Assembly (NCBI GenBank): GCA_951804945.1
Contig: OX638150.1
Span: 35,464,001-35,528,000 of the forward strand
Length of the DNA stretch: 64,000 nt
From: Podarcis cretensis
Taxonomy: Eukaryota
Reading direction: 5' to 3'
Shown here: piece by piece, positions 2,495 to 60,210 of the stretch
Position numbering within the stretch: the first letter of the stretch is position 1
How the letters are laid out: each line of letters starts with the position of its first letter
The notes under the pieces: generated by a model
Seen by the model: only the letters and a program-made list of their open reading frames with translations
Told to the model about the DNA's origin: nothing
Databases searched by the model: none
Position numbers and translations under genes: made by a program

Positions 2495-5400
2495 CCGGCA
2501 GAAAACATAGTTTGGATCCTACTTTTTGTTGCAAAGCTCCACAATGGAAAGTCAATGGGAAAGAAAAGCTGTCCGTTTGGAGTGTCCCAGACTGAATGAG
2601 GCGGGTAAACAGAAGGAAATACTGCCACATAAATTATTGTAGGAGGGAAAATGGTAAAGCCAGGTAGGAAGGTTGCAGTCGTATTTGAATATATCTGACT
2701 GTTTAGCGTCAGACCAAGTGGTACGAATAAAGCAAATTTCAAATATAAGTCAATAATTATTTTCTAAACAATATTGCACAGAACACGGATTATTTATTAA
2801 ATAATATTGCACAGAACACAGATTAAAACGCCCCTTTAAAATACCCTTCACATAATCATAACTCAAATATACTAAGGTTACAAATTTTATATTTTTTTCA
2901 ATTTAACAGTATATAGAAGACAAATATTTCTTAATCAAATCTAGTGGGTAAAATACAAATACTTTGGTAGGAAAACTATTACTCTATTTGGTACTCTAGC
3001 TGGCTTGCATGATCAAATAAATACCTGCAATAAGTAACATATACATATTTACAAAACAAAACATTTAAAATACGAAAAGTTCCTATTTAGCAAATACACA
3101 TTATGTTAAGTGATTTTAGCTTCTTTATACAAACTCCCTGCAGCTTCTAGGATGAGGGCCTAATACTGCAGTCTGGTGTGAAATGCAATGAGAAGTATAG
3201 ACTACTGATATGTACAAAACTATTGACATATTTTCTTATACATCTTATATATGAAGTGCATCCTAAGTAAAAGCAATATACCTGATTCTATTAAAGCACA
3301 GGTATTGCAATCTCTAAATTGATGTATTACTGATCACACAATAGCTAATGATTACATTAATTAACCCTACAGTTCTAGTATTTAACAGGATGCAAATTTC
3401 TGTAAAACAAGAAAATCCTTAATAAAATAATATCAATCCAAAACAAAACAAACAAACAAAAAGGATGCAAATTTGAAAAGTCTATTATTCTTTCTAATCA
3501 TAGTGTTCTATAAGGTAATAGTACCGAAAAAGACAAGACGCTGTTGGTAAGGTTTGAAAACACCTTCAGATCCAGCAAAACCAATTACATAATCTTTACT
3601 AGCCTGGGCATTTCTGTTGAAAGGAAGACACATCTCAAAACTGTTTCACACTCAGTGCTGAAATTACATTATATGTGCAATCAAGATGAAATTGAAGATA
3701 TAAACAATGGGACATATACTGCACACCTTATGAAATCCTGCTCCCCCACTGGCTCACAGAAATTTTATTACAGTGATAAAGATTACTAATACGTGTGGCA
3801 TGAAGATGCACATTTGCATTTCCAAACAGGTGTGACCAAATGCTGTTCATTTTAAGCACTATATTTTGTTACTGATCATCAAACATAGAATATAGTTGTA
3901 CTTTTGTGTACTTGTTTTTATTTAGTTGCAGTGTATGTACTATAATCACTTTCCTGGCAGTAAACACTATTGAACTTTGTGGGACTTCTCAGTAAACATA
4001 TATATTACTGTGGTAATATAGAACACCCAAGTTTCACAGAACAGACACCATGGCACTGCCACACCCCTTCCCATTAGAAAAAAATGTCTAAGTGCTTATA
4101 AATTGATTGCACAATCAAATACTAATTATTGTTATATTGAATACCTTTAACTTTCCTCCTCTTTGCCATAGTATACTTATTTGGTCAGTCCACAATGAGA
4201 CAAACTGGACACATAGGTATGTCCCCCTTAATGATAAGAACAATGCAATAAATGATTTATTGGGTTCCTCATAGCATCTGTGTATTAGATCAAATGAACT
4301 AAATTGAAGTCTGCAGGAGTAGGACTAATGACTAGAGATTTGTGATATTTATTTATTTGACAAAACCACTTGGTTGTTATAAAACCTATACACATAAAGA
4401 GTGAGACATACAAATAAGTTAACTAACGGAGGTGGAAGACTTTCGACATACTGTATAAGATTAGTAAGTCTGTCTTTCACACCTATCAGTAAGAATATGT
4501 CTAAGAAAATCGTATTGCGATGAAACTATTGTACCAACACCCAGCCATAATCTTATGATTTGCTGCTGATAGCACAAGACTTGGTTCAGAGATCCCAGCA
4601 TCACACAAGGGCAATCTTTCACTCAAATAGCACTATCATTCATCAATGCTGCTTACGTTCAAAGAAGCATAGCCCTTACCAATAACAGAAGCATTATAAC
4701 ATGGGGGAGAGAGCCAATCAATTCCTTGTATCCCACCAGTCCAGGATATCTTTGGCTTCTAACTCCAGTACTGTATAGCTTTGCCCTGTTTAAGAACTGA
4801 ATCATAGCAATTTCCCATTTGCTTTTAAGGGCAAGCACCTTTCTGTCCTAGTTGATTTCCACACTAACATAGTTTGCATGGCTTTGTGTAAATGTGTAAG
4901 TTCCTGGAGGGCATTGGGGCTGCTGTGCTGCTTTCCTGGTCGTCCTCCTGCCATACTACCATCAGCTGAGCCATGGTTTGGCTTACTATGTCTGAACCTG
5001 GGCTCATGGTTTGTCTTGCTCTAGACAAAACTGTGGTTCTGGCTTTGGAGGACACCGCTAAGGAGGACCAGGGAAGAATGTAGCACCTGTGATCTCTCTG
5101 GGAACTCGCATGTTGTGGTGTCAGCCTGTGCTTGCATCACAAATACAATAGGAGATAGGATTAAGCTGTGTCTTTGGCCATAACCAATTTCAAACTGGGC
5201 AATAACTGAGTATTCCAGTCCTCATGTTCACTCCTTGACTCCAGATGTTAAAGGATAAGCAAGAGAAAAGCCTACTCTCACCACCATATATAACACTAAC
5301 AGGATGAAACATTGTACCTGAAATATTGCCATAAAGAGGCTAAAAGTGTGTGTGTGGGGGGGAAGATTCCAACCCTTCTAAAGGAAGTTTAAAAGGCATG

Positions 5401-5597
5401 TTCAGCCCAAAAGTTTACTTGGAAATTAGTCCAAATGGCTTCATTTCTGAATAAATATTGTAAAAGTCTGGGAGCATAAGACTTCAGTCCTATGCAAACT
5501 TTAAGCTGCATTAAACAGTGTATGGATCACTTTCAAGCCAACATGCATAGCAGTGTGCTGCATAGAAACCAGCATAATATACTTAAGTAGGAAGATA

Positions 5598-5815
5598 CAG
5601 TGGTGCCTCGGGTTACATACGCTTCAGGTTGCAGACTCCGCTAACCCAGAAATATTACCTCGGGTTAAGAACTTTGCTTCAGGATGAGAACAGAAATCGT
5701 GCAGCAGCGGCAGCAGGAGGCCCCATTAGCTAAAGTTGTGCTTCAGGTTAAGAACAGTTTCAGGTTAAGAACAGACCTCCAGAACGAATTAAGTTCTTAA
5801 CCCGAGGTACCACTG
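5598..5815. mobile_element. Tc1/mariner-type (pogo/Tigger-like) MITE
   Basis: TIRs CAGTGGTGCCTCGGGTTA / TAACCCGAGGTACCACTG flanked by TA on both sides; same subfamily as 19041-19283. Confidence 0.85.
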
Positions 5816-6329
5816 TACTCAGTACTGCATATGATTTGACTCATGCCAACTACACAACTGAAAGAGGAATTGTAAAGCACCTTGTCTTCTGAAATATTCT
5901 ATGTAAATAAATTTATGTGCAATAAAGTCATTGCATTAACAATGGCTATACATATCTAGTTATTACTGTAAAGGTTTAACCATTTTATAGGTAAGTGGCA
6001 TAGTTTATGACAAACTATTATATTTACTCAGACACCTCACAACAGCAGACAATAGTTCATCCTGTTCTAATGATAGCAAAACATTCTATGAGAAGGATTT
6101 CGTCTAATCAACTGTTTTAAAGCCCCGGTTTTCTTTCACTATAGAAGCTGTCATTGTCAACCAGAATTGCATACAGTACTGATTTGCCATCTTAAAACTA
6201 TATAAACATCCTACAGTTCTTTACCAGAAGAACGAGTGCACAAACTCCTACATCTGCACTCCTACATCTGCGCTTGCTGACATTTGCTTCCAAGTGAACA
6301 TCGTTTGGATCGGGCTGTATCAGTTTTAC

Positions 6330-7170
6330 AAGCGGCTAAATTGTTCAAAACGCTTCGAGGCTTGCATAGCGCTGCTTCTACTTAGATCCGCTTGATGGCA
6401 ATCCATGGAGGAACTCATCCGAACTACAACTCCTATGAAACCCCGCGCTGTTGCACAATCCGGGGCAGCGAGCGCAGGGCACCCCTGGAAGTTGTAGTTT
6501 CATTGGCCGGAAGCCCAGTAGAAGAAAAGGGGGACTTTCCGCCATCACCGGGACTACAAGCCCCAGCATGCTTTGGGTAACCCGGGGCGGTAATGGCGGC
6601 GGCAGCGCCTGCGCATTGCGGTCTCCGTGCGGACCGCGCAGAGTGAATAATAAAGCTCTCCTCCTCGGTGGTAGCGGGCGGCGGCGGAGGGAGTGGAAGG
6701 CAGGAGCATGTCGAAGGGCCCGGTAGCGACCGGGCCTCCCGCGACCGGGCCGGTGGCGCCCGCCAGCGCGCTCCAGGCGCAGCCCGAGAAGCCGCAGCAC
6801 TACACGTACGTAGCGAGAACACCCGCAGCCGCCACTTACTGCTGCTGCGACCGCCGCCGCCGCACCCCTCCGCCCGGCACCCGCCCGCGCGCCACACACG
6901 CCTGACGTCAGCGGGCAGCGTGCGGCTCGCGCGCACGGAAGCCAACCGCCCGCCCGGAACCGGCTGGAACCGGTCGTGGCCGGCCTGGGCCGGTGGAATT
7001 TCGCCTGAGTGGGAGGGGGCGGGGCGGGAGCTGACACCCCCCCCCGCCGCCGCGCGCTTTTCCGTTCCCGCGCGCGAGTGCGCGCGCAAGAACAACCCCA
7101 CATACATAATACACACACCCCACAAGCTGAGGCGCGCGATACCCATGATGCGTTGCGGCTCGCGCACCCC
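6330..7170 (+). promoter_or_regulatory. CpG-island promoter of UNK with three ACTACAA-type (ZNF143/THAP11) motifs, YY1-like and NRF1-like sites
   Basis: Very high GC/CpG. ACTACAACTCC at 6423; reverse ACTACAACTTCC at 6487-6498; ACTACAAGCCCCAGCATGC at 6553-6571; AATGGCGGC at 6592; TGCGCATTGCG at 6610; CRE TGACGTCA at 6903. Confidence 0.85.
6708..6805 (+). CDS. UNK: UNK coding exon 1
   Basis: [33 protein letters not shown]; donor AC|GTACGT. Confidence 0.93.
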
Positions 7171-10100
7171 ATGGCTCCTCTACGTTGACTTTAGGGGGGT
7201 AGTGGGGACCTCTTGTAATCTTCCTCGCCCCCCTTTCCCCAAATCATCCGTTTTGTACTTGGTAGTCTTTCTCTCTCTCGGCTCTGCCTTCTTCCGCCTA
7301 GTAAAACGGTAATGCGTCTTTCCATGCCGCCAAGTAGGACGGTTGTGAAGTCAAATGTTGGAAAAACAAGTGGTTTGGTTTACTATGTTTCAATATAATC
7401 TTCGCTTTCTTTCTTAAGTACTAACCTCGTGTTAATGGCTGTGGGCTTGTGGTAAACACAAATAAGGACATCCTTTCTTATTTCGAACTGTCTTTTCTAG
7501 AGTAAAGGGACCATCTCATAAAATCTAAGCTGCTCTTTGCCAGAGCTTTGACTTTCTTTGCTGTTCTTCCTTGGCACTGGGTTAGTTTGTCTTTCTCTCA
7601 GGAGATGCCCCGTTAACATTTCAAGAATAAGGGGAACTGTGGTGTGTGTTTTGTGAAGTGAAGGATGCCAAGCCCAGGAGAAACGTTATGTAGAGTAAAT
7701 TGCTATAATTCTAGGGGGGAAATGGTAACAAAAGAGAGAGCATAAAATAGTGTTTTTTCCTCAGTCGCTGTAGTACACAATGCTTTGGTAGAAAAATGTC
7801 AAAGGGATACTGAGTTCTGAAATAAATCGCCTGTTAGTGTTCTGTGGCAATTGTGTGAGGAAAGTATTGTTTTCACTCCATTCAGAAATCCTGGTAAATT
7901 CTCTTGTGACCTAATTCTGTGAATAACTGGCTAAGCAAATGCAGGTATTTTGGACCAGACAGTGAATTATGTGCCACTGGTGACATCACCAACCTCTGTA
8001 ACATTGCACTGCAGGTGCAAATCCACAAAGGATGCTAGTACCTTGGCATAGTGTTGTGGGACAGTGGTACTACGCTAGAAACAGCCTCCATTTTTGTATG
8101 TGTCTTGTGGTATAATGCAAAGCTAATATATGGCACAGAATTGGCCAGAAATGCAGTACAGCCAGGTTAGAACTGAGAAAGTGCAACCCATCTATCTTAG
8201 GCTGCAATCCTATACAGTGGGTCCTCGGGTTTAGAACAGTCCTGTTTAAGAACGATTTGGTTTACGAACTCCGCAAAACTGGAAGTAGTGTCCCGGTTTG
8301 CAAACTTTACCTTGGTCTAAGAACAGAATCCAAATGGTGGAAGGGCACCAGTGGCGGGAGGCCTCATTAGGTAAAGCGTGCCTCGGTTTAAGAACGGTTT
8401 CAGTTTAAGAACGGAATTGAGGAACGGATTAAGTTTGTAAACTGAGGTACCACTGTACCTACATTCCTTGGACTAAACCCATTGAACTCAATAGGGCATA
8501 CTTCTGATTCGACATGTGAATTGTCTCAAGGATATGGAGAAGTGGAATAAAAATGTTGTAAATCAATAAAATGCTTCAGAGCTAGTAATACCGCTACAAG
8601 CGGTCACTGTGATTTAACTGATAACAAATGTTAGTGCAGAGTTGTCTTACTTGTAACACAGAAGATCCTGCTGCTATAGCTTGCTCCAGTATACCTCCTC
8701 CATGCAAATGCTCATTTATTTAATAAGTTTTGAAATTAATGGCTTCCCAGCCAGAATGTGGTACACTCCTGAAGCAGGCAAAGTTGAACAATAAAATAAA
8801 TTGGATACATAACTGTTGTGCAAAATTGCTTGGGTATTTGTTCTGCTGGTCAATTGGGACTCAACCAATTTTAATATCAGGCCTAGTTTACAAGTATGAC
8901 TGTAACACACACACACACAAAATCAAATGGTGAAATAAATGATACCAGGAATACAGTTCATAGGTGTGTTTTTTCATTTTTGCCTTGTGGGTGCATTTTG
9001 ATTATTTTAAAGTTTACTGAACTCATCTGTGAGGTTTAAAAATCAGTTTTCTTGTAAAAATTTGCTCAGACAAGACTTGCTGGTAGACTTTGCAAATTGA
9101 TGTTTCAAATGCAGTCTATTCTTTGCATGATCACACGTATTTTATCACACGTATTTTACTATAGTAATCAGAGCTTATGCTGAAGTAAGTGTGAGCTTAC
9201 TTAGGAGTAAGTGGGGTTAAGATTGCAGCCTTAGTGCAGCAAACGCATTTGTGTTCACAGAATGTAATGCTTGGCATTTATTTGCATTCATTTGCTTATA
9301 CTTTTGGCATTTATTTGTTGTTGTTTTTGTTGTTGTTTTTGCAATGAGAGAACCATGTGTCTTCTGGTTCTGCTGACTGTAATCTGTCCTTGATCCCTTA
9401 TCTCAAAAAGTTACTAAAGTGTGCTGAATGTACTGAAGTTATTAATAAGTTAACGTCTGCTTATAAGTCTAAGGAATTTCTTGCTGGACTGTTTCTTACA
9501 TGCATATTTATGAAGTAATTAGTAATATGTGTATTTAATAGTGTGTTATGACTTTATCTACTGTGAGGAATTAAACAGTTGTCTTTGCAAAGTGAAAACT
9601 TTGAGAACTGAGATAATCGTTACTATACAAGTTGCTGATGACTGTAAATATCTCCCTGAAGAAACATTATTGTTGCTTGAATCTGCCTTCCCCAGAAAGA
9701 AAAACTGACAGCCACTTTTCACCAGCATTAGAAACTGAGATATGAAAGCTAAGAGCTAAATGGCACCTTAAACCTAGGTTATGGGTGCAACAATGGAATA
9801 TCTAGGCACACTTTTTAATAACAAGAATTGTTGTTGTTTAGTTGTTTAGTCATGTCCAACTCTTCGTGACCCCATGGACCAGAGCATGCCAGGAACTCCT
9901 GTCTTCCACTGCCTTCCGTAGTTTGGTCAAACTCATGCTGGCAGCTTTGAGAACACTGTCCAACTATCTCATCCTCTGTCGTCCCCTTCTCCTGGTGCCC
10001 TCAATCTTTCCCAACATCAGAGTCTTATAACAAGAATACAAAGCTGAAAATTAATGAACGGCAGCTAAAACATTATGTTCATTTTTCATATGATCTAGTC

Positions 10101-13100
10101 CTTCCCCTACCTACCTCCCTAATATTCTTAAGAGGGTCTCTTCCCTAGTCTTTGGAGAGTAGCTGGAAGTAAAAGGTAAAGGGACCCCTGACCATTAGGT
10201 CCAGTCGCGGACGACTCTGGGGTTGCGGCGCTCATCTTGCTTTACTGGCCGAGGGAGCTGGCGTACAGCTTCTGGGTCATGTGGCCAGCATGACTAAGCC
10301 ACTTCTGGCAAACCAGAGCAGCGCATGGAAACACCCTTTACCTTCCTGTCGGAATGGTACCTATTTATCTACTTGCACTTGATGTGCTTTCGAACTGCTA
10401 AGTGGGCAGGAGCAGGGACCGAACAACGGGAGCTCACCCCTTTGTGGGGATTCGAACTGCCGACCTTCTGATCAGCAAGCCCTAGGTTCTGTAGGGAGGC
10501 AGAAAAAGGTCTTCCTTTCCTTCCACTCCACAGTTTTAATCTGAAATCTTAGGCACAGAACTGCGCTCAGAGCTCAGAAACTGCTCACGCTAATGAAATT
10601 CCGTGTCACAAAATGCGCATAGAACAATGAGAGTTTAGAACACTGCTTTCCACATTATATTAGGGACACTGAAATATAATCAGTTATCATTTTTATGTCT
10701 AATTGTCTCATAATGAAACATGGTTAAGATGACTGAGTTCAGACATGCTGATCCACAACATACCTGTATCTTCTTTAGAGGCAGATACATATTTTCTTAA
10801 GCCTTTAAAATTTTAGGAGGGTTTTTAATCTTGGAAATTAGAAGCAAGCAAATTTCCAATTTTGATAATTGGGTAAAGCAAAATAACAACCCAGAGAGAG
10901 AGAGAGAGTGTGTGTTCCTGTGTCCTTAAGCAGCTGTACACCTTATACTGGTTAAAGTAGTTGGGCTTGAAACGGTAGCAACATTTTCTCTCTTTTATAA
11001 GATGCTGGAATGTATTGATAATGGAAGGAATATAATTATGAAGGGGTTGTTGCTGGAATGTAAAAGTAGTTTTTGTATGCCATTTAAAAAACACAAATCT
11101 AGAAATTGTGGCTGTGTGAGAAAGATAAAATGTTTAGGCATTGGGCTGCTTGAAATACAAAGCTAAACCATGGTTTTGGTGTTACTTAAACAAGCCTAAG
11201 GACCACTCTTGTACCCCTGGCACACATGATCCCACCTTCCCTTGCATGCCACAACACTTCCTTCCTGATTTTAAGCAAACCATAGTTCACCTCCCCCCCC
11301 CCAATTTTTTTTTTTGGCAAACTATGGTTTGTGCTTGTGTGTATCCCAGTTCGGTTACGTAGAAGTAAGTTTGCACTGGTGCATTGTCACCAAGGCTATG
11401 TATACTTCGCAGAACTTATATTATTATTTTAAAATGTGTAGAAAGGAAACCTAAATCCTGTGTCAGCTAAAGCTGGTTTTATTTTTATTTGGAACAATTT
11501 TGCCATTTTATGCTCTCATAAAATTCATTAGACTTCTAATTGTGGAGAGGAGCAAGAAGCTATGCAAGGTACCTATCCCTAGACCACTAGAAAATCTGTT
11601 TAACCTCTTGTCAGTTAGGCTGTTGGCTTGTTTCTCTCCAAATAATCAAGGGTTTTAAACCACAGTTAAGTTTCAACTATGGTTTAAAGAAGTGGTTCCC
11701 AAACTTTTTTGAGCCACCGTCCCCTTCATTGCATACAATCAACTCTAGGGCTTCCTACCTTACCCTTCTGTATAAAAAGCATTGCTGTACAATCATACCT
11801 TGGGTTACAGATGCTTCAGGTTGCTTTTTTTCAGGTTACGGACCGCCGAAACCCGGAAGTACCGGAACGGGTTACTTCCGGGTTTTGGCGGATGCGCAGA
11901 AGTGCCAAATTGCAGCCTGCGCAGACGGACTGCTGCGGGTTGTGAATGTGCATCCCGCATGGATCATGTTTGCAACCCGAGCGTCCACTGTATTCAGAAT
12001 AGTGGTTTGCACAAGCCACTAAGGAGTACAATAACACAAAACATCAAAACAATAACCATTAATTGCATATTTACTGAAAATGCAATTGAAACTATTTCGT
12101 TTAGATAGTGATGAACTTGATCCAGTGACACCAGTTTTTCGAAGTCATATACCGTATTTTTTGCACCATAACACTCACTTTTTTCCTCCTAGGAAGTAAG
12201 GGTTTGAAATGTCTGTGCGTGTTATGGAGGAAATGCCTACAGGTGGCATGCCTACGGATTTTCCTCCTCTAAAAACTACGTGCGTGTTATGGTCGGGTGC
12301 GTGTTATAGAGCAAAAAATACGGTAGTTATTTACATCTCCAGCACCTCCCTGCTGTCCCCATACCTCTAAGCTCCCCCCCAGGTAATCTCACCCACCCCA
12401 GAGGGCTGTACTGCACACTATGGGAGCCACTGGTTTAAAGTCATGTGTAAACAAGGCAAGAAAGTGAGTGAAATCATAGAATCATAATACACTCCTGAAT
12501 TTGCCTTCCTTTTTTGTAACACCACAAATTTGCAATAAAGTTATAAACAAAGGCGTGTCTGCTTGAGGTGATTTAACCCCAAGAGTTCAAGCAATGAGTA
12601 TGACATATTAATTCTATCAGTCAACCATTAGGTCTTCCACGTGCAGTCTGCAGAGCAGTTATTAAAAGGGAAAGCCTGAATAAGAGACAGTAAAAGTTTA
12701 CTAGACGAGAACTATAAGGAGTAATAAGCGTGAAAAGCAGTGAGATTTCCATGTGAACAAAGCTCATTGTGCTGAAGAAGCTGAAGATCAAATGTAGTTA
12801 TTGGCATGGTATGTTTGTCTCCTTTCATAGTAAAATGATCATGTGAAATATTTGCTTGAGTATTCCCATGCAAAACACTTAACTAGTGGTTTATTTTTAT
12901 AAGCAAATAGAACAATGTTGGTGTTAAAAGGATTTCAGTGAGATTTCTAAGTAATGCTTTTTTGGAATTTTGCATCTTGATCTTGGCAACAGGTTTCCTT
13001 CTAGCCAGGGGACTATGAACACAGACCTCATGGCTACCTACAGCAGACCGATTCAGGCGTAGTTTCTGTACCAAACTGAGCAAAACTTACTCCATTGCTG

Positions 13101-16100: not shown

Positions 16101-19100
16101 TGTAAAGCTGTTATAAATATATCCCTGTTTGTAGATTCAAACCTATTCACAGTATGTTACGTACTCTCTATTCATTGGGGGGGGGGCAAGTTTCTCCAAT
16201 GGTTGAGCATCCTTGATAGGAAGTACATCTGCTTCTTTTAGTTTAAAAAGTAAACCTGTAATTCAAAATAATCAAATTCAGGATTAAGCTGCAAGAAATA
16301 TGAATGATGACAAAATATAAGATGCATAGTGTATGAGTGCAAGGCAATGAATGCAGAATTTGAAGTGTGTGTCTATTTTGTGAAGCTTGGCTAGGTAGGT
16401 AATACTGTACTTGCTGGTAAAAAAATATTATACTTGTAAAAGGACCCTGTATTACTGAGAGTTTGTTTCTTTCAGGTATCAGCTTCTTAGTCATTAGCAG
16501 GAACTTCATAGCCCCAAGCTTCTTTTAATACCCAAACCAACAAAATCTGGACCAAATAAGCATTCAAAGCTGCCCTCTGTAGGCCATACTAGAGGCTGCA
16601 TAGCAGATCAGCTCCTATTAGCTGACATGAGGTTCCGCAAATAAATGTAGTGATCCCTTGAGCCTTGACCTTTAAAAAGAAAATAATTAAAAGTAGCCAC
16701 AAAAGGTTGTGAGGAGGAATAGTTTGGGGAAAGGTGCTGGCTTAAACCTTTTAGAAGAGTTTGGATTTGATATCCCGCCTTTCACTCCCCTTCAGGAGTC
16801 TCAAAGCGGCTAACAATCTCCTTTCCCTTACTCCCCCACAACAAACACTCTGTGAGGTGAGTGGGGCTAAGAGACTTCAGAGAAGTGTGACTAGCCCAAG
16901 GTCACCCAGCAGCTGCATGGGGAGGAGCGGAGACGCGAACCCGGTTCCCCAGATTACGTGACTACCGCTCTTAACCACTACACCACACTGGCTCTCACCT
17001 TCAACACTCCCTCTGCTGTTTTTCTTGGGGGGAGGGCAGAACTCTTCCACTCAAGTTCACAACTTCCTACAGCTGCTTTTCATTACAAAACTATCATGAG
17101 ATTGTTACATGTATCTGCCATGTAATTTCTAGTTTGGTCTCAATTCCGTTTTGTAACATTGTATTGTGATTTGGCTAGATGTCATGGCTGTGATTTCGAT
17201 GTTTCCAGAAATCTCTTAGGATCAAGAATTCCATTTTAAGTTCTTGAAATAATTCCATAGCAAGGGTCATTATCTTTTTTTTACTTGTGTTTCTTGATCA
17301 GTAGTGAAATGAACTCTGGTGACTTGGTGATCAGATTTAATGCCTCCTTGAAATTAGGACAGGAATTTAATTTAGTGCAGCATTACATTTACATTGTCAC
17401 AATACTTATAAGATTGCTGCAATTATTAATATACATCAGTTACAGGGCTTATAATTAAGTTAATTTTGCAGCAATAACAGATCACCAGTAAAGTGGATGA
17501 ATGCTGCACACAGTATAATGATAATTTAACTTAAGACGGTGCTTAAATATATGATGATCTGTAGGACAATTTGGTTGATTCCTTTGACAAGGATGTGCTT
17601 AGGGACACAGGCAGAGTTCCATTTCTTGCAATGAAATTATTACCCAGCACTGATTCTATTTTAGAAGTGTTGGAGTACTGAAAGGCAGAAAAAATCTCTG
17701 GGGTGGGGGGCTGTATCAGGTCCTGTATCAATCTAGCAACTGACGTTCTTCCCAGCATAAGTATGCATCAGGGCAACCAAGGCTGCTTCTGTGTAAAAAC
17801 AAAAACAAAAAAGCTTAACAGATATGAAGCTAGTTTAGAAATGAATCCAATCAGGCTCTTCCAAGATTAACCGCCACCACTCATTTGGACATCATGCCTG
17901 GGCAGGGAATGTTAGCATTAACTACATTCTTTGGGTATATGAAGATGCTTCACTTGTGTTATTTCACAAAACATTTGAAAAAGCATGGTAAACATCTCGG
18001 TCAGAGAGTTTAAAACCCCCCTGATATTTTACCTTCCCATGCTATTTTGCCCTTTTACAATCTTTAGTTGTGTTAAGTGGGAGAGCTGTTAAAATACCCA
18101 GGCAACCCCTCGTTTCCGCATGTTTAATATGTGTGCAACTGTGTTCGGCATCGCACCAACCTGGAAATGACCTGGAAACATCATAAAGATGTAACTGAAA
18201 CATCACTATAAGGGTGAGGTGGAGGTGGAATGGGGCAGAGTGGGGCGGGGTAGCGTGTTTGCAGATAACGTGATGCAGTAAATATTTCTAGAGCCTACCA
18301 GTGCTGTGTTTACGATTAATTGGTATCAAGTAAATCACTTCAAATTTAATCTCTTTGAAATCATACTAATAGTATAGTAAGAGCTGAATAAAAATGAGAG
18401 GTTTAAAATTGTGGGCAAGACTTACCTGAATGATCTTTTCGTACTAATTAGTTGATATTTATTTAGGTGCTAAAGATTATTTCAAGGCATGCCAGAACTG
18501 TCATCTTGACAGATGTACATTTATTGAAACTCTTTCCCTTTCATTTATTTGCCACACCCCTTCATTCCCAATTTCATTTGTTTCCACAAAATTTATGTTG
18601 TCTCGAGCAGCTTAAATGGTGGTTGATCTTTGCAAGGCTTGCAAAATTATGTCTTGCTGGTGGAAGGGAGATAATGGAATGGTAATCAGTGTTGTATTCA
18701 GGAAAGAGACATATTGGTCTTTTTATGCCAGGAGGTGTCTTGAGAAATTAGAATTCAGCTATTTATTAGATGGTGCCAACCAATTTACTTTGGATTGCTG
18801 ATACAGAAAATTCAAAAATTTAGTTGGATGTTACAGTGTAGGAGAATCTTAAGATAGAAGCATGTGTATATTCTCATGAAGTGATATTTTAAAGGGGGGG
18901 GGGCTGTAGTTCAGCAGTGGTTTGCATGCAAAAGCTGCTAGGTTCAACATTAGGAAGCCACCTTATACTGTCACAGACCATAATTCTATCTAGTTCAGTA
19001 TTGCCTACACAGACTCAGAGATTCTTCAAGGTTTCAGATACAGAGGTACCTCGGGTTACAGATGCTTCAGGTTACAGATGCTTCAGGTTACAGACTCCGC

Positions 19101-22100
19101 TAACCCAGAAATAGTACCTCAGATTTAAGAACTTTGCTTCAGGATGAGAACAGAAATCGTGTGGTGGCGGCGCGGTGGCAGTGGGAGGCCCCATTAGCTA
19201 AAGTGGTACCTCAGGTTAAGAACAGTTTCAGGTTAAGAACGGACCTCCAGAACAAATTAAGTTCTTAACCCGAGGTACCACTGTAGAAGCCTGGAGACTC
19301 CAGAAATTGGAGAATAGCTATGACACTGTGGTGCAGGGCATGTTTTCAGTGTAGGAGTTCCGAGCTTCAGTCACCAGCATCTGTAGTATGGGAAAGTGGA
19401 GGGTGAGAGGGAGCACTTGGAAAGCCCCCTGTTTAAAATCCCAGTGAATGTGAATGAGTCTTCTTCAACCTCATCTCTTCCCATTGCTGAGCTACAACTT
19501 CCATCATCCCTGATCATCGCTGTGCTGCTGGCAGTTGGTCCAACAACTGCCACGGACACCAGATTGGGGAAGACTGTGTAAAGAATGCTGAGCTAGATGA
19601 ATGTATTTTTTTACTCTATAAGGTAGTTTTCTATTGCTGCTGGTTATGAGTCTCATGCTCACACAAATGAACAAACAACTTGTTTTATATTTGATGCAGG
19701 AATGCCTTATTAAAGAAGAAAGAAAGTAAGCTGTGGTGCTTAGCCTAAAAATCTATAGTCTCTTGCTTATAACAAAGATTTTTAGGTATCTGGTGGAAAG
19801 AGGATTTGGGAGAACAATTAGCTTTCTGAAATGTAATGCTTTCTGTCTACCAGCCTGACTTTCTTAGCAGCTGTACATATCCAGGCATTCCAAAATTCCA
19901 TTTTGCAACATCTAGCATGCTTTGGTAAGCATTGTGGGTCCCATCTGCTTCCATTGTCTATCAGCTACTGTTCATTCTAGATATCTCACCATGAGGTTTT
20001 AGCAGATCCTATTTGCTACTCCATGCATACGGTATGGTTTATTGTCTTAGCTAGCTAGTAATCTTTGATATTTGGGCAGTTGATTCTGCTTTACAGAGCA
20101 GGTGAAAGTTTTTGATAAAATTAAATTTGGCCAAGGTGTTGATTCTTAAGCATCAGCAGCTACAAGCCAAACTTCGGAAGAGTTGGCCAGCACTGGCATT
20201 TCCACTTAACTGAGACACTGGATCATCAAATATGCACAAGCAGATGGTTAGCCTCATGTTAATTACAGAACACATTTGAGCCAAATTCAGACAGATATTC
20301 GTGGTGATTTGCATACTGCGGACTTAAGATTCCTTTTTCCAATGGAAAAGCCCTTGAATGAATGACTTATGCAGCCTACTGGATATTTCTGATAAGGCCA
20401 TCAGTTCAGAACCAATTAACACTTGGAATAACTTCCTATCACAGGGTTCTAGGCAGCATTTTATATTTTATTGAGATAAGCAGAGGAGTACAACATGTGA
20501 CTTTGCAATTGCTGTAGGTAGGTATGTAAATTAACAATTGGTTCTGTTAAACTTTTATTTCTCTGGACAAAAGTATCATATACAAAAAGGCACATTTACT
20601 TAAACTCTACTTTCAGCTGCCCTTATTTATGATCCTGCAAATGTTCCCTATATAAACAATCTTACCTATAGGTGAGTGTTCTTGGAGCAGTCTGTGCTAT
20701 CAAAGGAAGCTGCGGCCTGGAGGTTCTTACTTTTTATCTCTCCAAATGCCTAAATCAGTTGTTCCAAATTGCCGATTTACTTAAAGGATGAGTCCTGGGC
20801 TATGTGTCCTGCTCTCATTTGACTAGAGAGAGGCTGTTTGGATTACCTTAATTATCTGAGGGTCCATTGTGGGTTATGTTCCTGATTTTCAAAGCTGGAG
20901 AAACAGTTATTGAAGTGAGGCAACAGAGAGTTTTTGTAGCCTGTGAGTGACTAATTTAGCAACTAAGGGAAAATAAAAGAATAAAAAAATGTCCTGTTCT
21001 ATAAATGGAATTCTTACATACATTTAAAAATAGAGCTTCTTTGGGTTGCTTTTGAGGAAGTAGCATAATTGCAGAGTAGTGTGCCTCTCCTACTTGGTTA
21101 AGTTGCTGACGTATTAATGTAGTATCAGAAAGAAGTTGTATAGCTGTTCAGGAAAAAGGTCCTGCCATGATTAAGACAATATGCAGTGCTTTAAAACCAT
21201 ATGAACCCCAGAGGAATTGCTGCTGGTTGGCTTGTACCTGCCACTTCTACTTGCTTGACGCATTGAGTAAATATATGTTGAAATTGAGCTAGCTAGTTCA
21301 ATTTGAGGTTATCCACAGTAAAACCTAGGAACTGATTACGTTCTCTGAAGTGAAAATGTTAGGATGTATGTTGGGGTAGAAACAATGTACTTATTTCCTT
21401 AGGATCCTGACTCTGTGTGATCCTGATTGTATTTTTGTGATAACAGGGGCATGGTCTGAGATATTAAGAAGACAGATCTCCAAGTTGTGGACCTAAGACT
21501 TTCTGTGATTAAGAAATAATCCATTCTGGAATAATTTTTTGACTTTGCATGCTCTCACTCAATCCAAGACTCATTATGTGAACAGCCCTCTCTCATGCAA
21601 GGAAGCCTTTGGGACACATGTCTGATAACTACTTAGTATGTGGCTTAACTACTTGGTTTGTGGAAGGAAACTCTATTTTTGAGCCTGTGCTCATGTAGTA
21701 AAATGGATATGTGGGCATTCTTTACACATGATGGTGTATATTTGTACAATATTTGTGTATTCCTTTTCTGCTGTAATATTTCTCAAAGCAGTTCCCAATA
21801 ATAGAACTGGATTTATAGACAGGTCATATTGCCTTGGCAATTCCGAATTGCAGGTGCTGCCAATGGGATCATGTGATTCCTTGTTCTGCCCCTCTCAAAG
21901 GTGGTGGTGACAAAGAGAGGTCCTAGTAGCAGATGTTTTTCAGAGTCCTAGACTGATACCTTTTGAGAGAGGAGACCACACACATGTGCATGTCTTGTAG
22001 TGTTCACCTCACCGTTCATTGTATTTTGTGGAGTATCTAGAATTCTGAAGTTGTGTGGCAGACCCTTTTTTTTTTAAAAAAAGTATTTTTATTAAAGATT

Positions 22101-46100: not shown

Positions 46101-49100
46101 CACAGCTCCACCCCATCACATGGAGCACTACTGGAGAGCATTCTGTTGCTCCACAGACTTTGTGGATCTATTTGCAACCTACCCTTTGTATGTGTGAGCT
46201 CTGGCAGAAAACAGCAGCAGAAGAAACTGTATCCAATTTATTCCCACCTGGTTTGAGATGGTGAGCCATTTTGCATTATTTAGAGCAGAAAAAGCAGGTG
46301 TAAGACTCAGCTGGGAACCTCAGCCAATCCCTGCCCCTGGTGTTATACAGGTGTTTTTGCAAGCACATGTTCGTTGCACAGTACATTTTTAAGCACTCTC
46401 ATAAAAATGTGAACTGTGCAGTGAGCTTTATTTCCCTTAGTATTAAACTCTGCCTTATTCTAAAAAAATAAAACAAAATCTGAGGGCCACTTGTTCTGAT
46501 GTGAAGTGCGCTGGTTCCTCAGATGAACTTCTGAGTAAGATCAGCAAAGGCACAGATTTGGACACTAAAATGGCTTAGTGCTGGTTTCTACTGAAGAACT
46601 TCACGTGGTTAATAGATCTTAAGTATTGCAATTGTAGATTCTTATACTAAAGTATTCAAATCACATATGGGTTTGGTTTGTTAAAACGGTTCTAATTCTG
46701 ATCAAAACAAAATGGTGTAATATTAGAGACAAATCTTTCAAAAGTAGAAGTGTGAATTGCAACAATGTTTGGAATAAGATCTAAGCAGATTGATTAATGA
46801 AGTCACAAGATTAATGGCTAAGGGCTTTTTAAAAACCATCCACACACAGGTTTTGCTGTTTAACCAGGCCTCTGCTTATACTGGCAGTTGCTAGCATATC
46901 TGTTTTAGTTGTGCTGTGGCCAATGTCTCATGTGGAGACCTTCCCTGTGTGGTGCATCTAAGCCTGTATCTCTCTGCACAGCAGCTATAGGTTAGATGCA
47001 GTACAAAGTGCTCAGGAGCACTCTTGGAACCAGCATGCCATGTGTCATATTTTTTAAATGTAGAGAATATTTACCGTGTTGCCATTTCTTCTCTGTAAGC
47101 CGGAGTGACAAACAGTAACTCTGCAGGTACATGAATGTCCGTCCCCAGAATCCCCAAATGAATCAATGCCCTGTGAAATATTGAACCATTTCATTCCCTT
47201 TCCAAAACAGTGCCGGGCAAGGAAAGGGGTAATCCAGGGATATATGTGACGTAACATTTCCCCCCTTCCTGTCTGCATGAAACAGGTTTAAACGGGATGA
47301 ACAGCAGCATATGGGAGCACTTTGCTTCTGGAAGTTTTTCACCCAGTACCTCGCCTGCATTTCTGTCGGGTCCAGGTGCTGCTGAGCTGGCCAGGCTGCG
47401 GCAGGAATTGGATGAAGCTAACAGCACAATAAAACAGTGGGAAGAATCTTGGAAACAAGCCAAACAGGTAGCGTCCGCTGGGAGGGGTGAGTGAGAGTGG
47501 TTTGCCAGGATACGAATGGGCAAAAGCATGCACCTAACAGCTGAATAAATAGTTTGAGGGTCCAAAAATAATATACAAAGTCAGATTTGGTGTGTGTTTA
47601 TACTGTAACATAGTTCATTCACAGCAGACACGGGGGTTTTGTTTGTTTTTCTTTTTTAGCTCTTATCAATGGAGAAACGGATTGATACCTTAGATATGTT
47701 GAGGAGTAGGTTGCAAATTGTAATAGGATTTGAAAATGTTCATGCCAAGGTTGCTAGTGTTCCTCTAGGAGTATTGGCTTTTTTCCAGTTGTATCTGAGC
47801 ACACCTTTCCAATTGTTCCAATCTTTTTGATTTATGTATCCCCTGAAAATTGATATGCTCCTCACCTTTTTGTAGTAATGCTCTAATTATTTTGAGGTTA
47901 GTAGCTGTGCACTGAAAGAATGGTAAGCCCCTCCTTCTGCATTCAAGATGCTTTGTAAATGTTCTCCCTCTGGGGATGTACGTTTCCACCCCGCTCTGGC
48001 CAGGTTGGCTAACAAGACTAGGGTGGGTGTGAATATATGCTTTTTGCCAAACTGTTCCCGTAACTAGATTGAGACAGATGGATTGCATTTAGTAAATTGT
48101 TCCTGGAGCTGGTGTTAGGCGCTGGAGTCAGGCATAGGTCAGCAATAAAACAATAAAGCACCCGATGCCAGTGAAGTTAATTCTTTATTCAAAGAAACAA
48201 AACAGCTCAGTGATCACAGCAACCCTTCCCAGTAGGTCTTGCCCTAATGAGGCAGTTGTGAGGACTGAAGGTCCCTGCCTTCCCTCTGCTCTCTAAGGCT
48301 CCTCCTCCAGTTCCTTCCCCAGCAGCCTAAGGCTCTGCCACCTTGTATCTCATTGCCCTGCCCTCTTCATTTCTCTGTGTGGTCTGGGAGACCAGCAGGG
48401 ATGGGAGCTGGTTGCAGTAGGAGAGGAAGACTCCCTGGCTTCTGCAGCCTGCCCCTACTCTGCCTCTTGACCCCATTCTGCTTCTGCCTCTGCTGCTGGA
48501 GTGTTCTCTGCCACAGCCTCTTCCTGCTCACTAAACCCTGTGGCCTCCTCCTCCTCCCAGTTTGCTCCCGCTTCTCCCTCTGACCATACATTGTTGTCCC
48601 ACCACCAATCCCCTGGCTGTGAGCTTTCTTGCCTTGGGGGTTCCTTTGGGGGTTTCCCAGCTGGTGCCACCCACCACTCTTCTGTATCCAGCCAGTCCAT
48701 AACAGCTGGGCAGGCAGGATCCTCCACTTTAAGGCACTTTGTTTTTTTCCTTTTCACATGTCAAAGCCATGTAGCTAAAATAACCTATAGAGGAGTTATG
48801 GTAAAATGTGGATACCTGGGCTAGAAAACCTTTGTGTCACTTCTGTGTGTGCGGATTGAAAGGATCTCATTAGCGCAGGGGTGTGTTTCCAAAAATCTGT
48901 CCATTCCACCTCTGGGCAATTATTGTGCCACAAGGAAAGAACAGCCCAGAGCTGGAGAAGGCTGCCTTTCAAGCTTTGGGGGAACAATTTACTAAAATAA
49001 TCTATATAAGTACCAACTACGACTACTTTTATTTTAACTGCTTTATTATGCATACAATAATAAAATACCAATTCCTCCCCCATCTCCACCAAAATAGACA

Positions 49101-50945
49101 CATGGTACCTTCTTGCCATGTGAATATATTTTTGAGAAGATAAACACTCTAGGGTCCAATGTGTGTGCACACCTTTTGCCAGTACTGTGCCCACAATGTT
49201 TGCTTGGGAAATTTGCCATATTTTGTCTCACACTGATTTCAGGAGTTTGTATAGATACAAGAAATCTGCTCCATATACAAAGCCTTTAAATAGAATGCTG
49301 GGGAAACTATTCAAGCTGCGGAGTGAAGCCAAGTGAGGAGATGAGAGAATTCACTTCACATCCTCCTCTCCCACCCCACCCCCACACTGTTTCCCAAATT
49401 ACAAATGACTTTTCCTTTGGGATACACAGGCCTGTGATGCTTGGAAAAAGGAAGCTGAGGAAGCTAATGATCGTGCCAACACGGCAACCATAGAATGTGA
49501 GCTAGCCCGGGAGCAGAGGGAGGCCTTGGAGCTGCAAGTGAAGAAACTCCAGGAGGAAGTGGAGAGGATCCACACTGGCCAGGACCCCCAGTTCCTGCGT
49601 TCGCTCTCTGATGTAGAAACCCTCTCCCTCTCCACACTCTATAATCTCCAAAAACAGCTGCGTGCCAACCTGGAAAGAGTTGATAAGGTAGGTCTGAGTG
49701 AGAAGTCTTGTCCCACAATTAACTTAGCTTCCTTTTTTGAATCCTTAATAAAAGCAGCAACTGTTCAGTTTGCATTTTTAATCCATGGTACATTTTGAAC
49801 CCCATAGACTTGGCAACCATGAAATGTCCCATTCTTTCTTGGATGAGGGGGTGCCGTTTTATACTAGAATGCTCTCAGCTAGCAGGCAAGGCTTATAACA
49901 TGGTAATAGGAAAGGGCATTTTCCTCTGGATCAGAGTATGGTATGTCTGGTACCTGAAAGCAAATCCCACATTGGGCTCCCATGTAATGACTTGGGCCTG
50001 TAGAATGTGCTGAAATGGCACACACAGACTCCCCATGTTTCCGGGTGGTTGAAGGAAGATGGAAAGGGATTTTATTTGGTAGTACCTAACTTGACACTGC
50101 CTTAAAAACATTTACGGTCCCATAGCATTGATCTTGTGGGGGGGGAGAGTCAAAATGTCATCTTGTTTCCCCCACAAAACCTATACTGCACAAGAGCTGC
50201 ATATACACATTTCCGTGTGAGATGGGGGTGGGGTGGGTGGGATTGAATTTGCGGGAATGAACACAGACAATTGGGGGGAGGGTCCTCTTGCCCACACATT
50301 CCATAGTGCTGCTTTCTAGGCAAGAGGAGTAACAGCTGTATCCTATGCATCTTGGGTCCTGGCTGCAGCCTAAGCCACTTCCTTCCTTCAGTGACTTAAC
50401 AGAGCCAGCAGGCTGGAGGAGTCACTGCCAGGAGTTCGATATATGCCAAGTTCATGAGGCATGGCTGCCATCTATGTCATTTTGCATGCCGTCTGCCCAA
50501 AGGCACTCTCAGAACAGGTGACGGGAAGAGGAGAGAGGGATGTGGGGAGGTAAGCCAGATCAGGCATAGGAACAGGGAGGCGGTTGCAGAGAGAGAGGCA
50601 AAGGACTCCTCTGCCTCTTTTGTACTCCAGTTTCTTCCACTGCCCTCCTGAAAATGTCTGTGGGTTCTCCCTTGCCTACTTCTTGTGAATGTCTCTGACC
50701 CTTTAACGGCTGCCTCCTGAGTGTACCAGGGCTCTGTTCTGTTTTGCTGACAACCCCTTTGGTTTTGCCCCCCGTTTCTTTCTTTCCAGGCAGTGTTTCA
50801 GATGCAGTCGGTGAAATGCCTCAAGTGCCAGGAAGAGAACCGGGTGGTACTCCCGTGCCAACACACTGTGCTGTGTGAAACGTGTGCTGAGGAGGGCGAA
50901 TGCCCCATCTGCCATCCCAACAGGCCACACACTCTCCAGTCGTGA
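6708..50945 (+). CDS. UNK: RING finger protein unkempt homolog (six CCCH zinc fingers, disordered region, coiled coil, C-terminal RING-like); 16 core exons, 2430 nt, 809 aa
   Basis: Exons 6708-6805, 25226-25435, 25873-26049, 27544-27674, 27807-27942, 29764-29881, 31145-31229, 33166-33308, 36163-36363, 37482-37550, 38384-38558, 40514-40615, 42918-43106, 47286-47467, 49430-49687, 50790-50945 join in frame with GT-AG introns. Sequence MSKGP...[22 protein letters not shown]...[14 protein letters not shown] matches vertebrate UNK. Confidence 0.96.
8215..8455. mobile_element. Tc1/mariner-type MITE nested in a short palindromic repeat
   Basis: TA-CAGTGGGTCCTCGG...TGAGGTACCACTG-TA; it splits a GGCTGCAATCCTATA...CCCATTGAACTCAATAGG element. 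Confidence 0.8.
9829..10026 (-). mobile_element. RTE-BovB LINE 3' fragment
   Basis: (CAA)n tail, BovB-like 3' sequence (TCATGTCCAACTCTTCGTGACCCCATGGAC), 11-bp TSD ATAACAAGAAT at 9818-9828 and 10027-10037. Confidence 0.85.
10169..10492 (-). mobile_element. Sauria SINE (5'-truncated)
   Basis: ACCTTT-type tail and tRNA-derived B-box GTTCGAATCC on the minus strand; similar to 59833-60210. Confidence 0.88.
11790..11990. mobile_element. Tc1/mariner-type MITE (nested)
   Basis: TA-CAATCATACCTTGGGTT...AACCCGAGCGTCCACTG-TA; degenerate TIRs of the same group as 5598. Confidence 0.75.
12152..12323. mobile_element. TcMar (Tc2/pogo-like) MITE (nested)
   Basis: 23-bp TIRs CCGTATTTTTTGCACCATAACAC (2 mismatches) with TA TSD. 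Confidence 0.8.
14760..15008 (+). mobile_element. L2-type LINE 3' fragment
   Basis: AGGGCCTTCTCGGTAGTGGCGCCC...TGGAACGCCCTCCC ([13 protein letters not shown]-like), 3' stem GCCGCCCAGAGTGGCTGGG, (ATT)n tail. Confidence 0.75.
16753..16995 (-). mobile_element. tRNA/CORE SINE (Squam3-like)
   Basis: Minus strand starts AGAGCCAGTGTGGTGTAGTGGTTAAGAGCGG (A box) with a GGTTCGCGTCT B-box-like motif, then the CORE sequence GGGTGACCTTGGGCTAGTCAC. Confidence 0.8.
19041..19283. mobile_element. Tc1/mariner-type MITE
   Basis: TA-CAGAGGTACCTCGGGTTA...TAACCCGAGGTACCACTG-TA; internal 16-bp tandem duplication GTTACAGATGCTTCAG. Confidence 0.85.
22066..22747 (-). mobile_element. L1-type LINE 3' fragment
   Basis: Poly(A) tail (T-run on plus), ORF2 C-terminal-like peptide ([18 protein letters not shown]...FTPVWLPF), 9-bp TSD GGCAGACCC at 22057-22065 and 22748-22756. 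Confidence 0.82.
23746..23985. mobile_element. Tc1/mariner-type MITE, left end eroded
   Basis: Right TIR CCAAGTTACGACTG-TA; internal CCGGAA/TTCCGG motifs typical of this group. Confidence 0.65.
24625..25200 (+). mobile_element. Old L2/CR1-clade ORF2 remnant
   Basis: Decayed LNPDKTEVL and QIKVLVI-KAL-LG-GYLQD motifs typical of the region downstream of L2 RT. Confidence 0.6.
25226..25435 (+). CDS. UNK: UNK exon 2 (CCCH ZnF1-2)
   Basis: [30 protein letters not shown]...CPEGDE; TTTACAG acceptor, GTAAGT donor. Confidence 0.95.
25873..26049 (+). CDS. UNK: UNK exon 3
   Basis: [58 protein letters not shown]. Confidence 0.95.
27544..27674 (+). CDS. UNK: UNK exon 4
   Basis: [13 protein letters not shown]...[11 protein letters not shown]; GTGAGT donor. 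Confidence 0.95.
27807..27942 (+). CDS. UNK: UNK exon 5
   Basis: [45 protein letters not shown]. Confidence 0.95.
28133..28514. mobile_element. hAT-type MITE
   Basis: TIRs CAGGGGTGAGAACCT / AGGTTCTCCACCCCTG; degenerate 8-bp TSD (5/8). Confidence 0.65.
28843..28892. repeat. (TATAA)n microsatellite
   Basis: About 9-10 pentamer units. Confidence 0.95.
29764..29881 (+). CDS. UNK: UNK exon 6
   Basis: [40 protein letters not shown]. Confidence 0.95.
31145..31229 (+). CDS. UNK: UNK exon 7
   Basis: [28 protein letters not shown]. Confidence 0.95.
32131..32154. repeat. Short interstitial telomeric repeat (CCCTAA)3
   Basis: AACCCTAACCCTAACCCTAACCCC. Confidence 0.8.
32469..32633. mobile_element. 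hAT-type MITE nested in an older SINE/CR1-tail fragment
   Basis: TIRs CATGGGCGTAGCCAGG / CCTGGCTACAGCCATG; 6/8 TSD CATCACAT/CCTCACAC. Confidence 0.7.
33166..33308 (+). CDS. UNK: UNK exon 8
   Basis: [48 protein letters not shown]. Confidence 0.93.
34343..34390 (+). CDS. UNK: Candidate 48-nt alternative UNK cassette exon ([16 protein letters not shown])
   Basis: Pyrimidine tract plus TGTAG acceptor, ACA|GTAAGT donor, phase 0/0 matching the flanking exons, no stop codon. Confidence 0.65.
35428..35696 (-). mobile_element. CR1 LINE 3' fragment
   Basis: (ATTCTATG)n tail, ORF2 C-terminus [35 protein letters not shown]..., 6-bp TSD CACTTC. Confidence 0.9.
36163..36363 (+). CDS. UNK: UNK exon 9
   Basis: [20 protein letters not shown]...[24 protein letters not shown]. 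Confidence 0.94.
36768..36888 (+). mobile_element. Penelope-like element pLTR fragment containing a minimal hammerhead ribozyme motif
   Basis: CTGAAGAAGTGT...ACACGAAAGCTTATACC...TTAGTTGGTCTCTAAGGTGCTAC is typical of reptile PLE termini; 10-bp TSD CCTGAAAAAA at 36758-36767 and 36889-36898. Confidence 0.8.
37482..37550 (+). CDS. UNK: UNK exon 10
   Basis: [23 protein letters not shown]; CTGCAG acceptor, GTATGT donor. Confidence 0.9.
38384..38558 (+). CDS. UNK: UNK exon 11 (contains PAM2-like motif)
   Basis: [15 protein letters not shown]...[20 protein letters not shown]. Confidence 0.94.
40514..40615 (+). CDS. UNK: UNK exon 12
   Basis: [34 protein letters not shown]. Confidence 0.94.
42918..43106 (+). 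CDS. UNK: UNK exon 13
   Basis: [31 protein letters not shown]...SASHGSL. Confidence 0.94.
44422..44714. mobile_element. hAT-type MITE
   Basis: CAGGGGTGG...CCAGCTCTG ends; perfect 8-bp TSD TTTAGAAC. Confidence 0.7.
47100..47126 (+). CDS. UNK: Candidate 27-nt UNK microexon (AGVTNSNSA)
   Basis: TGCCATTTCTTCTCTGTAAG acceptor, CAG|GTACAT donor, phase 1/1 matching exons 13 and 14, open frame. Confidence 0.6.
47286..47467 (+). CDS. UNK: UNK exon 14
   Basis: [61 protein letters not shown]. Confidence 0.95.
48113..48704 (-). mobile_element. Solo LTR (Gypsy-like), 592 bp
   Basis: Termini TGTTA...TAACA, 5-bp TSD GCTGG at 48108-48112 and 48705-48709, AATAAA on the minus strand near 48184. Confidence 0.85.
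49430..49687 (+). CDS. UNK: UNK exon 15 (coiled coil)
   Basis: [16 protein letters not shown]...[14 protein letters not shown]. Confidence 0.95.
50790..50945 (+). CDS. UNK: UNK exon 16 coding part (RING-like)
   Basis: [51 protein letters not shown]. Confidence 0.95.
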   Translation, partial: AVFQMQSVKCLKCQEENRVVLPCQHTVLCETCAEEGECPICHPNRPHTLQS

Positions 50946-59832: not shown

Positions 59833-60210
59833 GGGACGCAGGTGGCGCTGTGGGTTAAAGCCTCAGCGCCTAGGGCTTGCCGATCGAAAGGTCGGCAGTT
59901 TGAATCCCTGCGGCGGGGTGCGCTCCCGTCGTTCGGTCCCAGCACCTGCCAACCTAGCAGTTCGAAAGCACCCCTGGGTGCAAGTAGATAAATAGGGACC
60001 GCTTACTAGCGGGAAGGTAAACGGCGTTTCCGTGTGCGGCTCTGGCTCTGGCTCTGGCTCTGGCCAGAGCAGCGATGTCACGCTGGCCACGTGACCCGGA
60101 AGTGTCTCCGGACAGTGCTGGCCCCCGGCCTCTTAAGTGAGATGGGCGCACAACCCCAGAGTCTGTCAAGACTGGCCCGTACGGGCAGGGGTACCTTTAC
60201 CTTTACCTTT
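59833..60210 (+). mobile_element. Full-length Sauria SINE
   Basis: GGGACGCAGGTGGCGCTGTGGGTTAA head, B-box-like GTTTGAATCC, (ACCTTT)3 tail, internal (GGCTCT)4 expansion; CpGs well retained. Confidence 0.9.

Follow-up and report, generated by a model that had tools for sequence, protein, structure and literature searches.

A reading frame in the U3 region of a Podarcis cretensis solo LTR is probably a remnant of the C-terminal tail of a Gypsy integrase with a chromodomain

We analysed a 64-kb stretch of Podarcis cretensis DNA (hereafter the window), which contains on its minus strand a solo LTR of 592 nt (48113..48704, TG...CA) belonging to an old, high-copy family designated family A. This LTR is the sole family A copy in the window. 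It is flanked by a perfect 5-bp target-site duplication, GCTGG (left copy, 48108..48112; right copy, 48705..48709; CCAGC on the minus strand), and an AATAAA polyadenylation signal on the minus strand (48184..48189), 71 nt from the LTR end, fixes its sense strand. Given the TG...CA ends, the duplication, the lack of an internal region, and the dispersed copies, the insertion is an ordinary dead solo LTR, and its description as a solo LTR in a sequence-only reading of this DNA was correct. A TCAGTC on the minus strand (48263..48268), which is found in many copies and which we take to resemble the initiator consensus, is a candidate transcription start. The LTR termini match the Sushi integrase-recognition motifs TGTYANR / CNTNACA, as listed in Table 3 of PMC3601003; the 5′ motif of Tf1/Sushi is also found in rGmr1, so the match is suggestive for Tf1/Sushi, not diagnostic.

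The LTR is inserted in antisense in a host intron with GT..AG boundaries (47468..49429, plus strand), which is spliced out in RNA-like contigs from three studies. The host gene contains exons for coiled coils, ends in a RING exon (50790-50942), and is presumably of the Unkempt type. Elsewhere in the window, a dispersed repeat with internal tandem units of 16–17 nt (5593-5817, 8210-8457, and 19036-19285) is probably a non-autonomous DNA transposon, and the sequences at 10167-10491 and 59864-60209 look like SINE copies.

The U3 reading frame (48293..48703, minus strand) runs from LTR nt 2, with Val followed by Met, to a family-wide TAG at LTR nt 410-412, about 27 nt before the TCAGTC. Retranslation of 48293-48700 reproduced the earlier translation exactly, including the two internal stops. 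The TAG at 48455..48457 is nearly private, being present in 1 of 80 other copies, and the TGA at 48350..48352 recurs in other copies (9 of 72). For this copy alone, a count of no more than two stops over 136 codons is unremarkable (14% of dinucleotide shuffles). The ATG (LTR nt 5-7) is the second codon of the frame and has a good Kozak-like context, with G at −3 and +4. Codons 1-95 (48419..48703) are acidic and Trp-rich, with a net charge of about −21, and codons 96-136 (48296..48418) form a Ser/Pro-rich and basic block that contains SPR (48383-48391). The site of the HMGN-like RRSxRL motif of family A (48323..48340) reads WQSLRL in this copy, both leading arginines having been lost.

Both edges of the LTR were crossed by contigs from four other organisms. 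No difference was listed at the TAG in orthologous contigs from two other organisms or at the TGA in an orthologous contig from one. As the insertion and its stops are common to other organisms, both are older than the split of those organisms. One RNA-like contig from another organism matches both LTR ends (window 48078-48704) with only 66 other letters between them, which may point to an allele or orthologue with an internal deletion. No RNA record covering the LTR was listed among these contigs, which cannot show expression. Co-option of this insertion as a small host gene or host exon is suggested by its presence in several related organisms and by pieces of other family A copies in automatic Podarcis gene models, but is highly improbable for a sequence that carries two stops, apparently also in other organisms, lies in antisense in an intron removed in all three RNA-like studies, and diverges from other copies to an ordinary extent (0.24 versus a mean of 0.25).

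A DNA search with the LTR gave 4,532 candidates, and among the 40 that were scored the closest other family A copy was 79–80% identical. A second family A copy used as the query gave the same picture, so that no young copy was seen. First-look candidates across the genome amounted to 4,532–7,866, which are not copy numbers, and copies were dispersed over all large contigs. We collected 178 loci (172 distinct), of which 59 came from DNA searches, 29 from protein searches, and 90 from a search with a 20-mer of the non-coding LTR end, which matches the genome exactly at 246 places. Ninety-one copies with an intact 5′ end were aligned, and stops were counted in 80 of them after exclusion of the 11 protein-selected copies. 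The tree was nearly star-like with several subfamilies, and 28 of the 51 loci having both termini showed a target-site duplication with 4–5 matches. Only 2 of the 80 unselected copies kept at least 120 open codons, and 61 of 181 private indels were in frame. The solo copies of family A decay neutrally; the proposal that a small gene persists in them is not supported.

Protein searches with the family A frame returned neither a near nor a longer homologue, the latter being weak evidence, and there was no match in Pfam or in metagenome contigs. The ESM Atlas gave no usable match, and another search there gave chromodomain clusters only. A profile search with the frame returned 15 short, scattered, one-off gene predictions, all of which we read as fragments of the family. 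Fragments of other family A copies occur in automatic Podarcis gene models, and the named relatives of the family are Podarcis proteins; the family, which had been predicted to be squamate, is lacertid. One Podarcis lilfordi gene model (P0003) runs from host exons into the family A LTR frame. Its in-frame upstream part was considered as a retroelement and rejected, as it matches a host gene cluster on contig C8. This tandem cluster (0.88-1.16 Mb; L143-L151, L163, and L166) carries a family A LTR just after an exon, and the LTR has been duplicated together with that exon. Family A LTRs also occur nested or head-to-head with one another, and a family C LTR lies inside a family A LTR (L158/L159, L333, and L180).

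We examined the frame at the level of the family. In the 80 copies, which were not chosen for coding, the sense frame from LTR nt 2 had no codon column with at least 25% stops before the terminal TAG, and that TAG was present in 89% of copies, in agreement with the proposal that the frame is intact in the family. Of the other five frames, four had 2–5 internal shared-stop columns and one antisense frame was also open. In shuffled sequences, the specified frame was fully open in 0.2–0.6% of cases, any sense frame in 0.8–1.9%, and any of the six frames in 5–11%. The last value, the open antisense frame, and the 14% obtained for the window copy alone are what would be expected if the frame were a compositional artefact, that is, a purine-rich U3 lacking stops by chance, in which constraint at the DNA or RNA level mimics codon bias; the conserved TAG could then be a promoter element. 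The shared indels point the other way. Of those common to at least 6 copies, all 5 inside the U3 frame were in frame, compared with 1 of the 4 after its stop. The expectation that indels would be multiples of 3 is thus borne out for these clade-specific events, but not for the private ones or when the cut was lowered to at least 4 copies (8 of 15 in frame), where the added 1-nt events were mostly spread over several subfamilies.

The subfamily-diagnostic changes also distinguish the U3 frame. Over the whole frame there were 29 synonymous and 43 nonsynonymous changes against a within-subfamily neutral synonymous share of 0.28 (p = 0.015–0.017). The synonymous excess was significant (p<0.05) under 8 of 9 choices of threshold and remained so when the protein-selected copies were left out (p = 0.036). 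It was significant in the U3 frame only; the two other sense frames were depleted in synonymous changes, and the open antisense frame showed a weaker excess (p 0.11–0.15). The excess was located in codons 96-136 (21 synonymous and 12 nonsynonymous changes, neutral share 0.35, p = 0.0009), whereas codons 1-95 showed none (8 synonymous and 31 nonsynonymous changes). Overall constraint in family A was modest, with an omega-like value of 0.53–0.63. The predicted codon-level constraint between subfamilies therefore applies to the SPR/Arg-rich end and not to the acidic/Trp part, for which the suggested role as an activation domain lost its support. The absence of an excess in codons 1-95 is compatible with an artefact of composition. 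The restriction of the significant excess to the U3 frame is not, nor are the in-frame indels inside that frame, nor its identity with the frame in which sister families read Pol (described below); this explanation is already weakened and we regard it as quite unlikely. The U3 frame is real at the family level. The lack of common stops, the in-frame indels, and the synonymous excess indicate that source elements were translated in this frame and that its basic end was selected.

In three young chromodomain-Gypsy families of the Tf1/Sushi type with paired LTRs in the same genome (families B, C, and D), the Pol frame continues across the polypurine tract into the 3′ LTR, where it corresponds to the U3 frame of family A. 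The entry is the same as in family A; the first base of the LTR closes a codon and Val is the first full codon (nt 2). The LTR-encoded Pol tails of the young families consist of 100–120 residues and are acidic, Ser/Pro-containing, and Arg-rich. A domain search identified RT, RNase H, integrase, and a C-terminal chromodomain in families B and C, both of which have a 5-bp target-site duplication, the same length as in family A, and a self-priming site past the 5′ LTR of 11 nt (exact in 3 of 7 elements) and 10 nt, respectively.

Family B has paired LTRs of 405–435 nt that are up to 100% identical and a Pol of 1351 aa with the order SH3, chromodomain, acidic stretch, polypurine tract, and approximately 100 codons of the 3′ LTR. 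This family (L128-L136 and L321-L326) is very young and abundant, with many open Pol frames of 1333–1351 aa, and the end of its tail is invariant across subfamilies. In this family the start of the self-priming R falls within the final Pol codons, and the bases concerned therefore serve twice. Family C (L267-L294 and L315; L315 / L275 at C12:54329000-54337500) has LTRs that are 97–99% identical and a Gag-Pol of 1544 aa, with the chromodomain at residues 1358-1405 and 117 codons in the LTR. Its tail starts with Val-Met, is acidic and then basic, and contains SP..RAE..RRSARL; of 32 loci examined, 12 had a tail that was open and in frame, and 10 of these tails read RRSARL. The net charges of the acidic and basic parts are −18 and +8 in the family C tail and −22 and +8 in a natural family A copy (L047). 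The family C tail ends with Pro-stop on CCTTAG, and the self-priming R begins about 35 nt further on; the subfamily of the window LTR has the same CCTTAG ending. Family C Pol, including the RRSARL tail, is represented in UniRef by an automatic Podarcis muralis gene model (A0A670IJD3), automatically named “Gypsy retrotransposon integrase-like protein 1”, whose tail is undescribed and which belongs to this family and not to family A. No match for the family C tail was found among PDB sequences. The tails evolve under purifying selection, with dN/dS values of approximately 0.46 in family C versus 0.26 upstream and 0.35 in family B versus 0.17 upstream, from non-independent pairs and, for family B, near saturation.

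The chromodomain-to-LTR junction was also in frame in five older elements (L305, L339, L342, L344, and L350), and six further older elements had the same junction with frameshifts upstream. The LTR starts of these elements were inferred, because no LTR pair was found for 11 of the 12 fetched elements. Several of them have Trp-rich acidic runs and SP-R-x-R-R blocks. Among these loci (L337-L351 and L305) are several older chromoviral families with acidic, Trp-rich post-chromodomain extensions and read-through, and the LTR of L351 opens with the same seven letters as the family A LTR. Separately, in the Gypsy elements L257-L262 the C-terminal domain of integrase precedes RT-like sequence, an order that is Gmr1-like in the terms of PMC3601003.

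No family A copy was found attached to Pol. The flanks (about 1–2 kb) of 172 distinct family A loci contained no gag, SH3, or chromodomain in sense, and the 8–9 kb upstream of 8 candidates contained no internal region. Two pattern searches for a tract followed by the LTR and one for a guessed primer site returned only solos or unrelated matches, and none of the integrase or chromodomain matches of other families was bounded by LTR A as its own LTR; two LTR A neighbours of such matches were dismissed as coincidental. At L158, a purine run resembling the family B tract directly precedes LTR A, with no Pol remnant. A self-priming site was seen in 3 of 94 family A copies versus 2 in the control, that is, none above background. 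Profile comparison of the family A frame gave E values of 0.75 against the C tail and 0.032 against the B tail, neither significant, and the basic block gave p≤0.05 against sister tails in 11 of 60 shuffle tests, which are non-independent. The assignment of the frame to an integrase tail, which we infer, draws on the frame of entry into the LTR, the layout and charge pattern of the tail, and the LTR termini and length of the duplication, all shared with the sister families, and read-through by family A's own Pol would follow by analogy with the sister families.

The lack of an attached Pol in family A, the ATG as second codon in its good Kozak-like context, and the open frame with its constrained basic end could also reflect a stand-alone accessory gene in U3, with its own ATG and a subgenomic RNA of the full-length element, encoding a chromatin tether or trans-activator. 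Such genes exist; MMTV sag and HIV nef are LTR-overlapping accessory genes, separate retroviral genes expressed from spliced RNAs. They resemble the present case in having a reading frame in U3, but the lizard frame most likely continues Pol, and no sequence link between them and the family A frame is expected. The ATG, earlier taken as the mark of an own gene, belongs to the Sushi-type terminal motif; in family C, Pol reads through the same Val-Met start. In family A it is kept in 58 of 80 copies, approximately as expected from neutral decay. The putative promoter lies downstream of the frame, so that a solo LTR would not transcribe it. The part proposed as an activation domain has no synonymous excess, and the protein searches gave only the 15 scattered predictions. 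We therefore consider an accessory gene unlikely, though less so than an artefact of composition.

In our judgement, the frame is probably what is left of the C-terminal tail of a Tf1/Sushi-type Gypsy integrase that carried a chromodomain. The tail would have been encoded in U3, and the solo copy in the window is dead. The Pol of the parent element would have had the order integrase core, SH3, chromodomain, polypurine tract, and 3′ LTR, entering the LTR at nt 2 (Val-Met-Asp-Trp...) and terminating just before the core promoter. Recombination between LTRs would then leave the tail without its upstream gene. Since a solo LTR lacks that gene and its putative promoter lies downstream of the frame, the tail would be neither needed nor made. 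The acidic part may serve as a flexible linker, and the basic end (SPR...RRSxRL) may act in chromatin tethering or in nuclear import of the integration complex, most plausibly by arginine anchoring to the acidic patch of H2A-H2B, alongside the chromodomain.

In regards to the motif, RRSxRL was read in 5 of 71 natural family A copies, so that the motif inferred earlier is present in natural copies but not in the window copy. The two columns preceding it mix Arg, Gln, Trp, and stop among family A copies. The motif is absent from families B and D, an older relative of family C reads RRSSALL, and the family C tail contains PRRSARLKA, which is nearly the HMGN core. The HMGN RRSARL, Dsup RRSSRL, and Dot5 RRSARI cores bind the acidic patch, according to PMC12487698 and PMC13347269. 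The corresponding sequences RRSARLSA, RRSSRLTS, and RRSARIAT have the R-R-S-x-R-L/I core in common with family C PRRSARLKA and family A RRSLRL, and the motif lies in a low-complexity, presumably disordered chain, as in the lizard tails. The variable residue is Leu in family A and Ala or Ser in HMGN, Dsup, and Dot5, and the lizard motif differs in sitting on a retrotransposon frame. The tail motif may have bound nucleosomes, the family C tail being the clearest candidate, and chromatin tethering by the tail is plausible.

Pol running into the LTR is already known from plant CRM chromoviruses (PMC3059260, PMC3605345). In CRM group A, the Gag-Pol frame crosses the polypurine tract into the 3′ LTR (PMC3059260, PMC3605345), with the portion encoded in the LTR forming a putative chromatin-targeting domain at the C-terminal end of integrase, as proposed here for the lizard tails. 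The general premise that LTRs are normally non-coding thus fails both for plant CRM elements and for the chromoviruses of the Podarcis cretensis genome. In CRM group A, a CR motif replaces the chromodomain and priming is by tRNA-Met, whereas in the lizard families a canonical chromodomain is retained ahead of the LTR, self-priming is used by families B and C, and an acidic stretch of the tail is followed by an Arg-rich one. Membership of family A in the plant CRM clade, which is marked by a CR motif, a tRNA-Met primer, a plant host, and a centromeric location, was considered and rejected; the host is a lizard, and the copies are dispersed on all large contigs. The closer resemblance is to vertebrate Tf1/Sushi elements (Metaviridae), for which PMC3601003 and PMC6317226 describe LTR termini and self-priming. 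Family A shares the terminal motifs, AATAAA near the 3′ end, and an LTR of approximately 570–590 nt, and the sister families share SH3, chromodomain, and self-priming sites. The U3 of family A is purine-rich and coding, whereas that of fish Sushi is described as T-rich. In searches of the open-access literature, we came across no account of integrase tails encoded by squamate LTRs, nor of an HMGN-like motif in such a tail or in any retrotransposon integrase.

The choice and holding of chromatin targets by vertebrate Gypsy integrases have been little studied, and a basic tail that is short, under selection, encoded in the LTR, and equipped with an HMGN-like core is a candidate acidic-patch tether, paralleling the LTR-encoded CR motif of plant centromeric retrotransposons. 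Integrase tails probably account for the acidic “orphan ORFs” of lizard solo LTRs and of automatic gene models, whose reading as orphan genes is likely a common false lead. More tentatively, and with less confidence than we place in the family A assignment, lacertid chromoviruses as a group may carry the last 100–135 residues of their integrases in the LTR, with an HMGN-type RRSxRL arginine anchor in at least two families (A and C). If this is true, a vertebrate retrotransposon integrase would gain a second chromatin reader, for the acidic patch, beside its chromodomain, and the position of the tail in U3 would mean that solo LTRs, in their thousands, seed the genome with acidic/nucleosome-binding coding cassettes.
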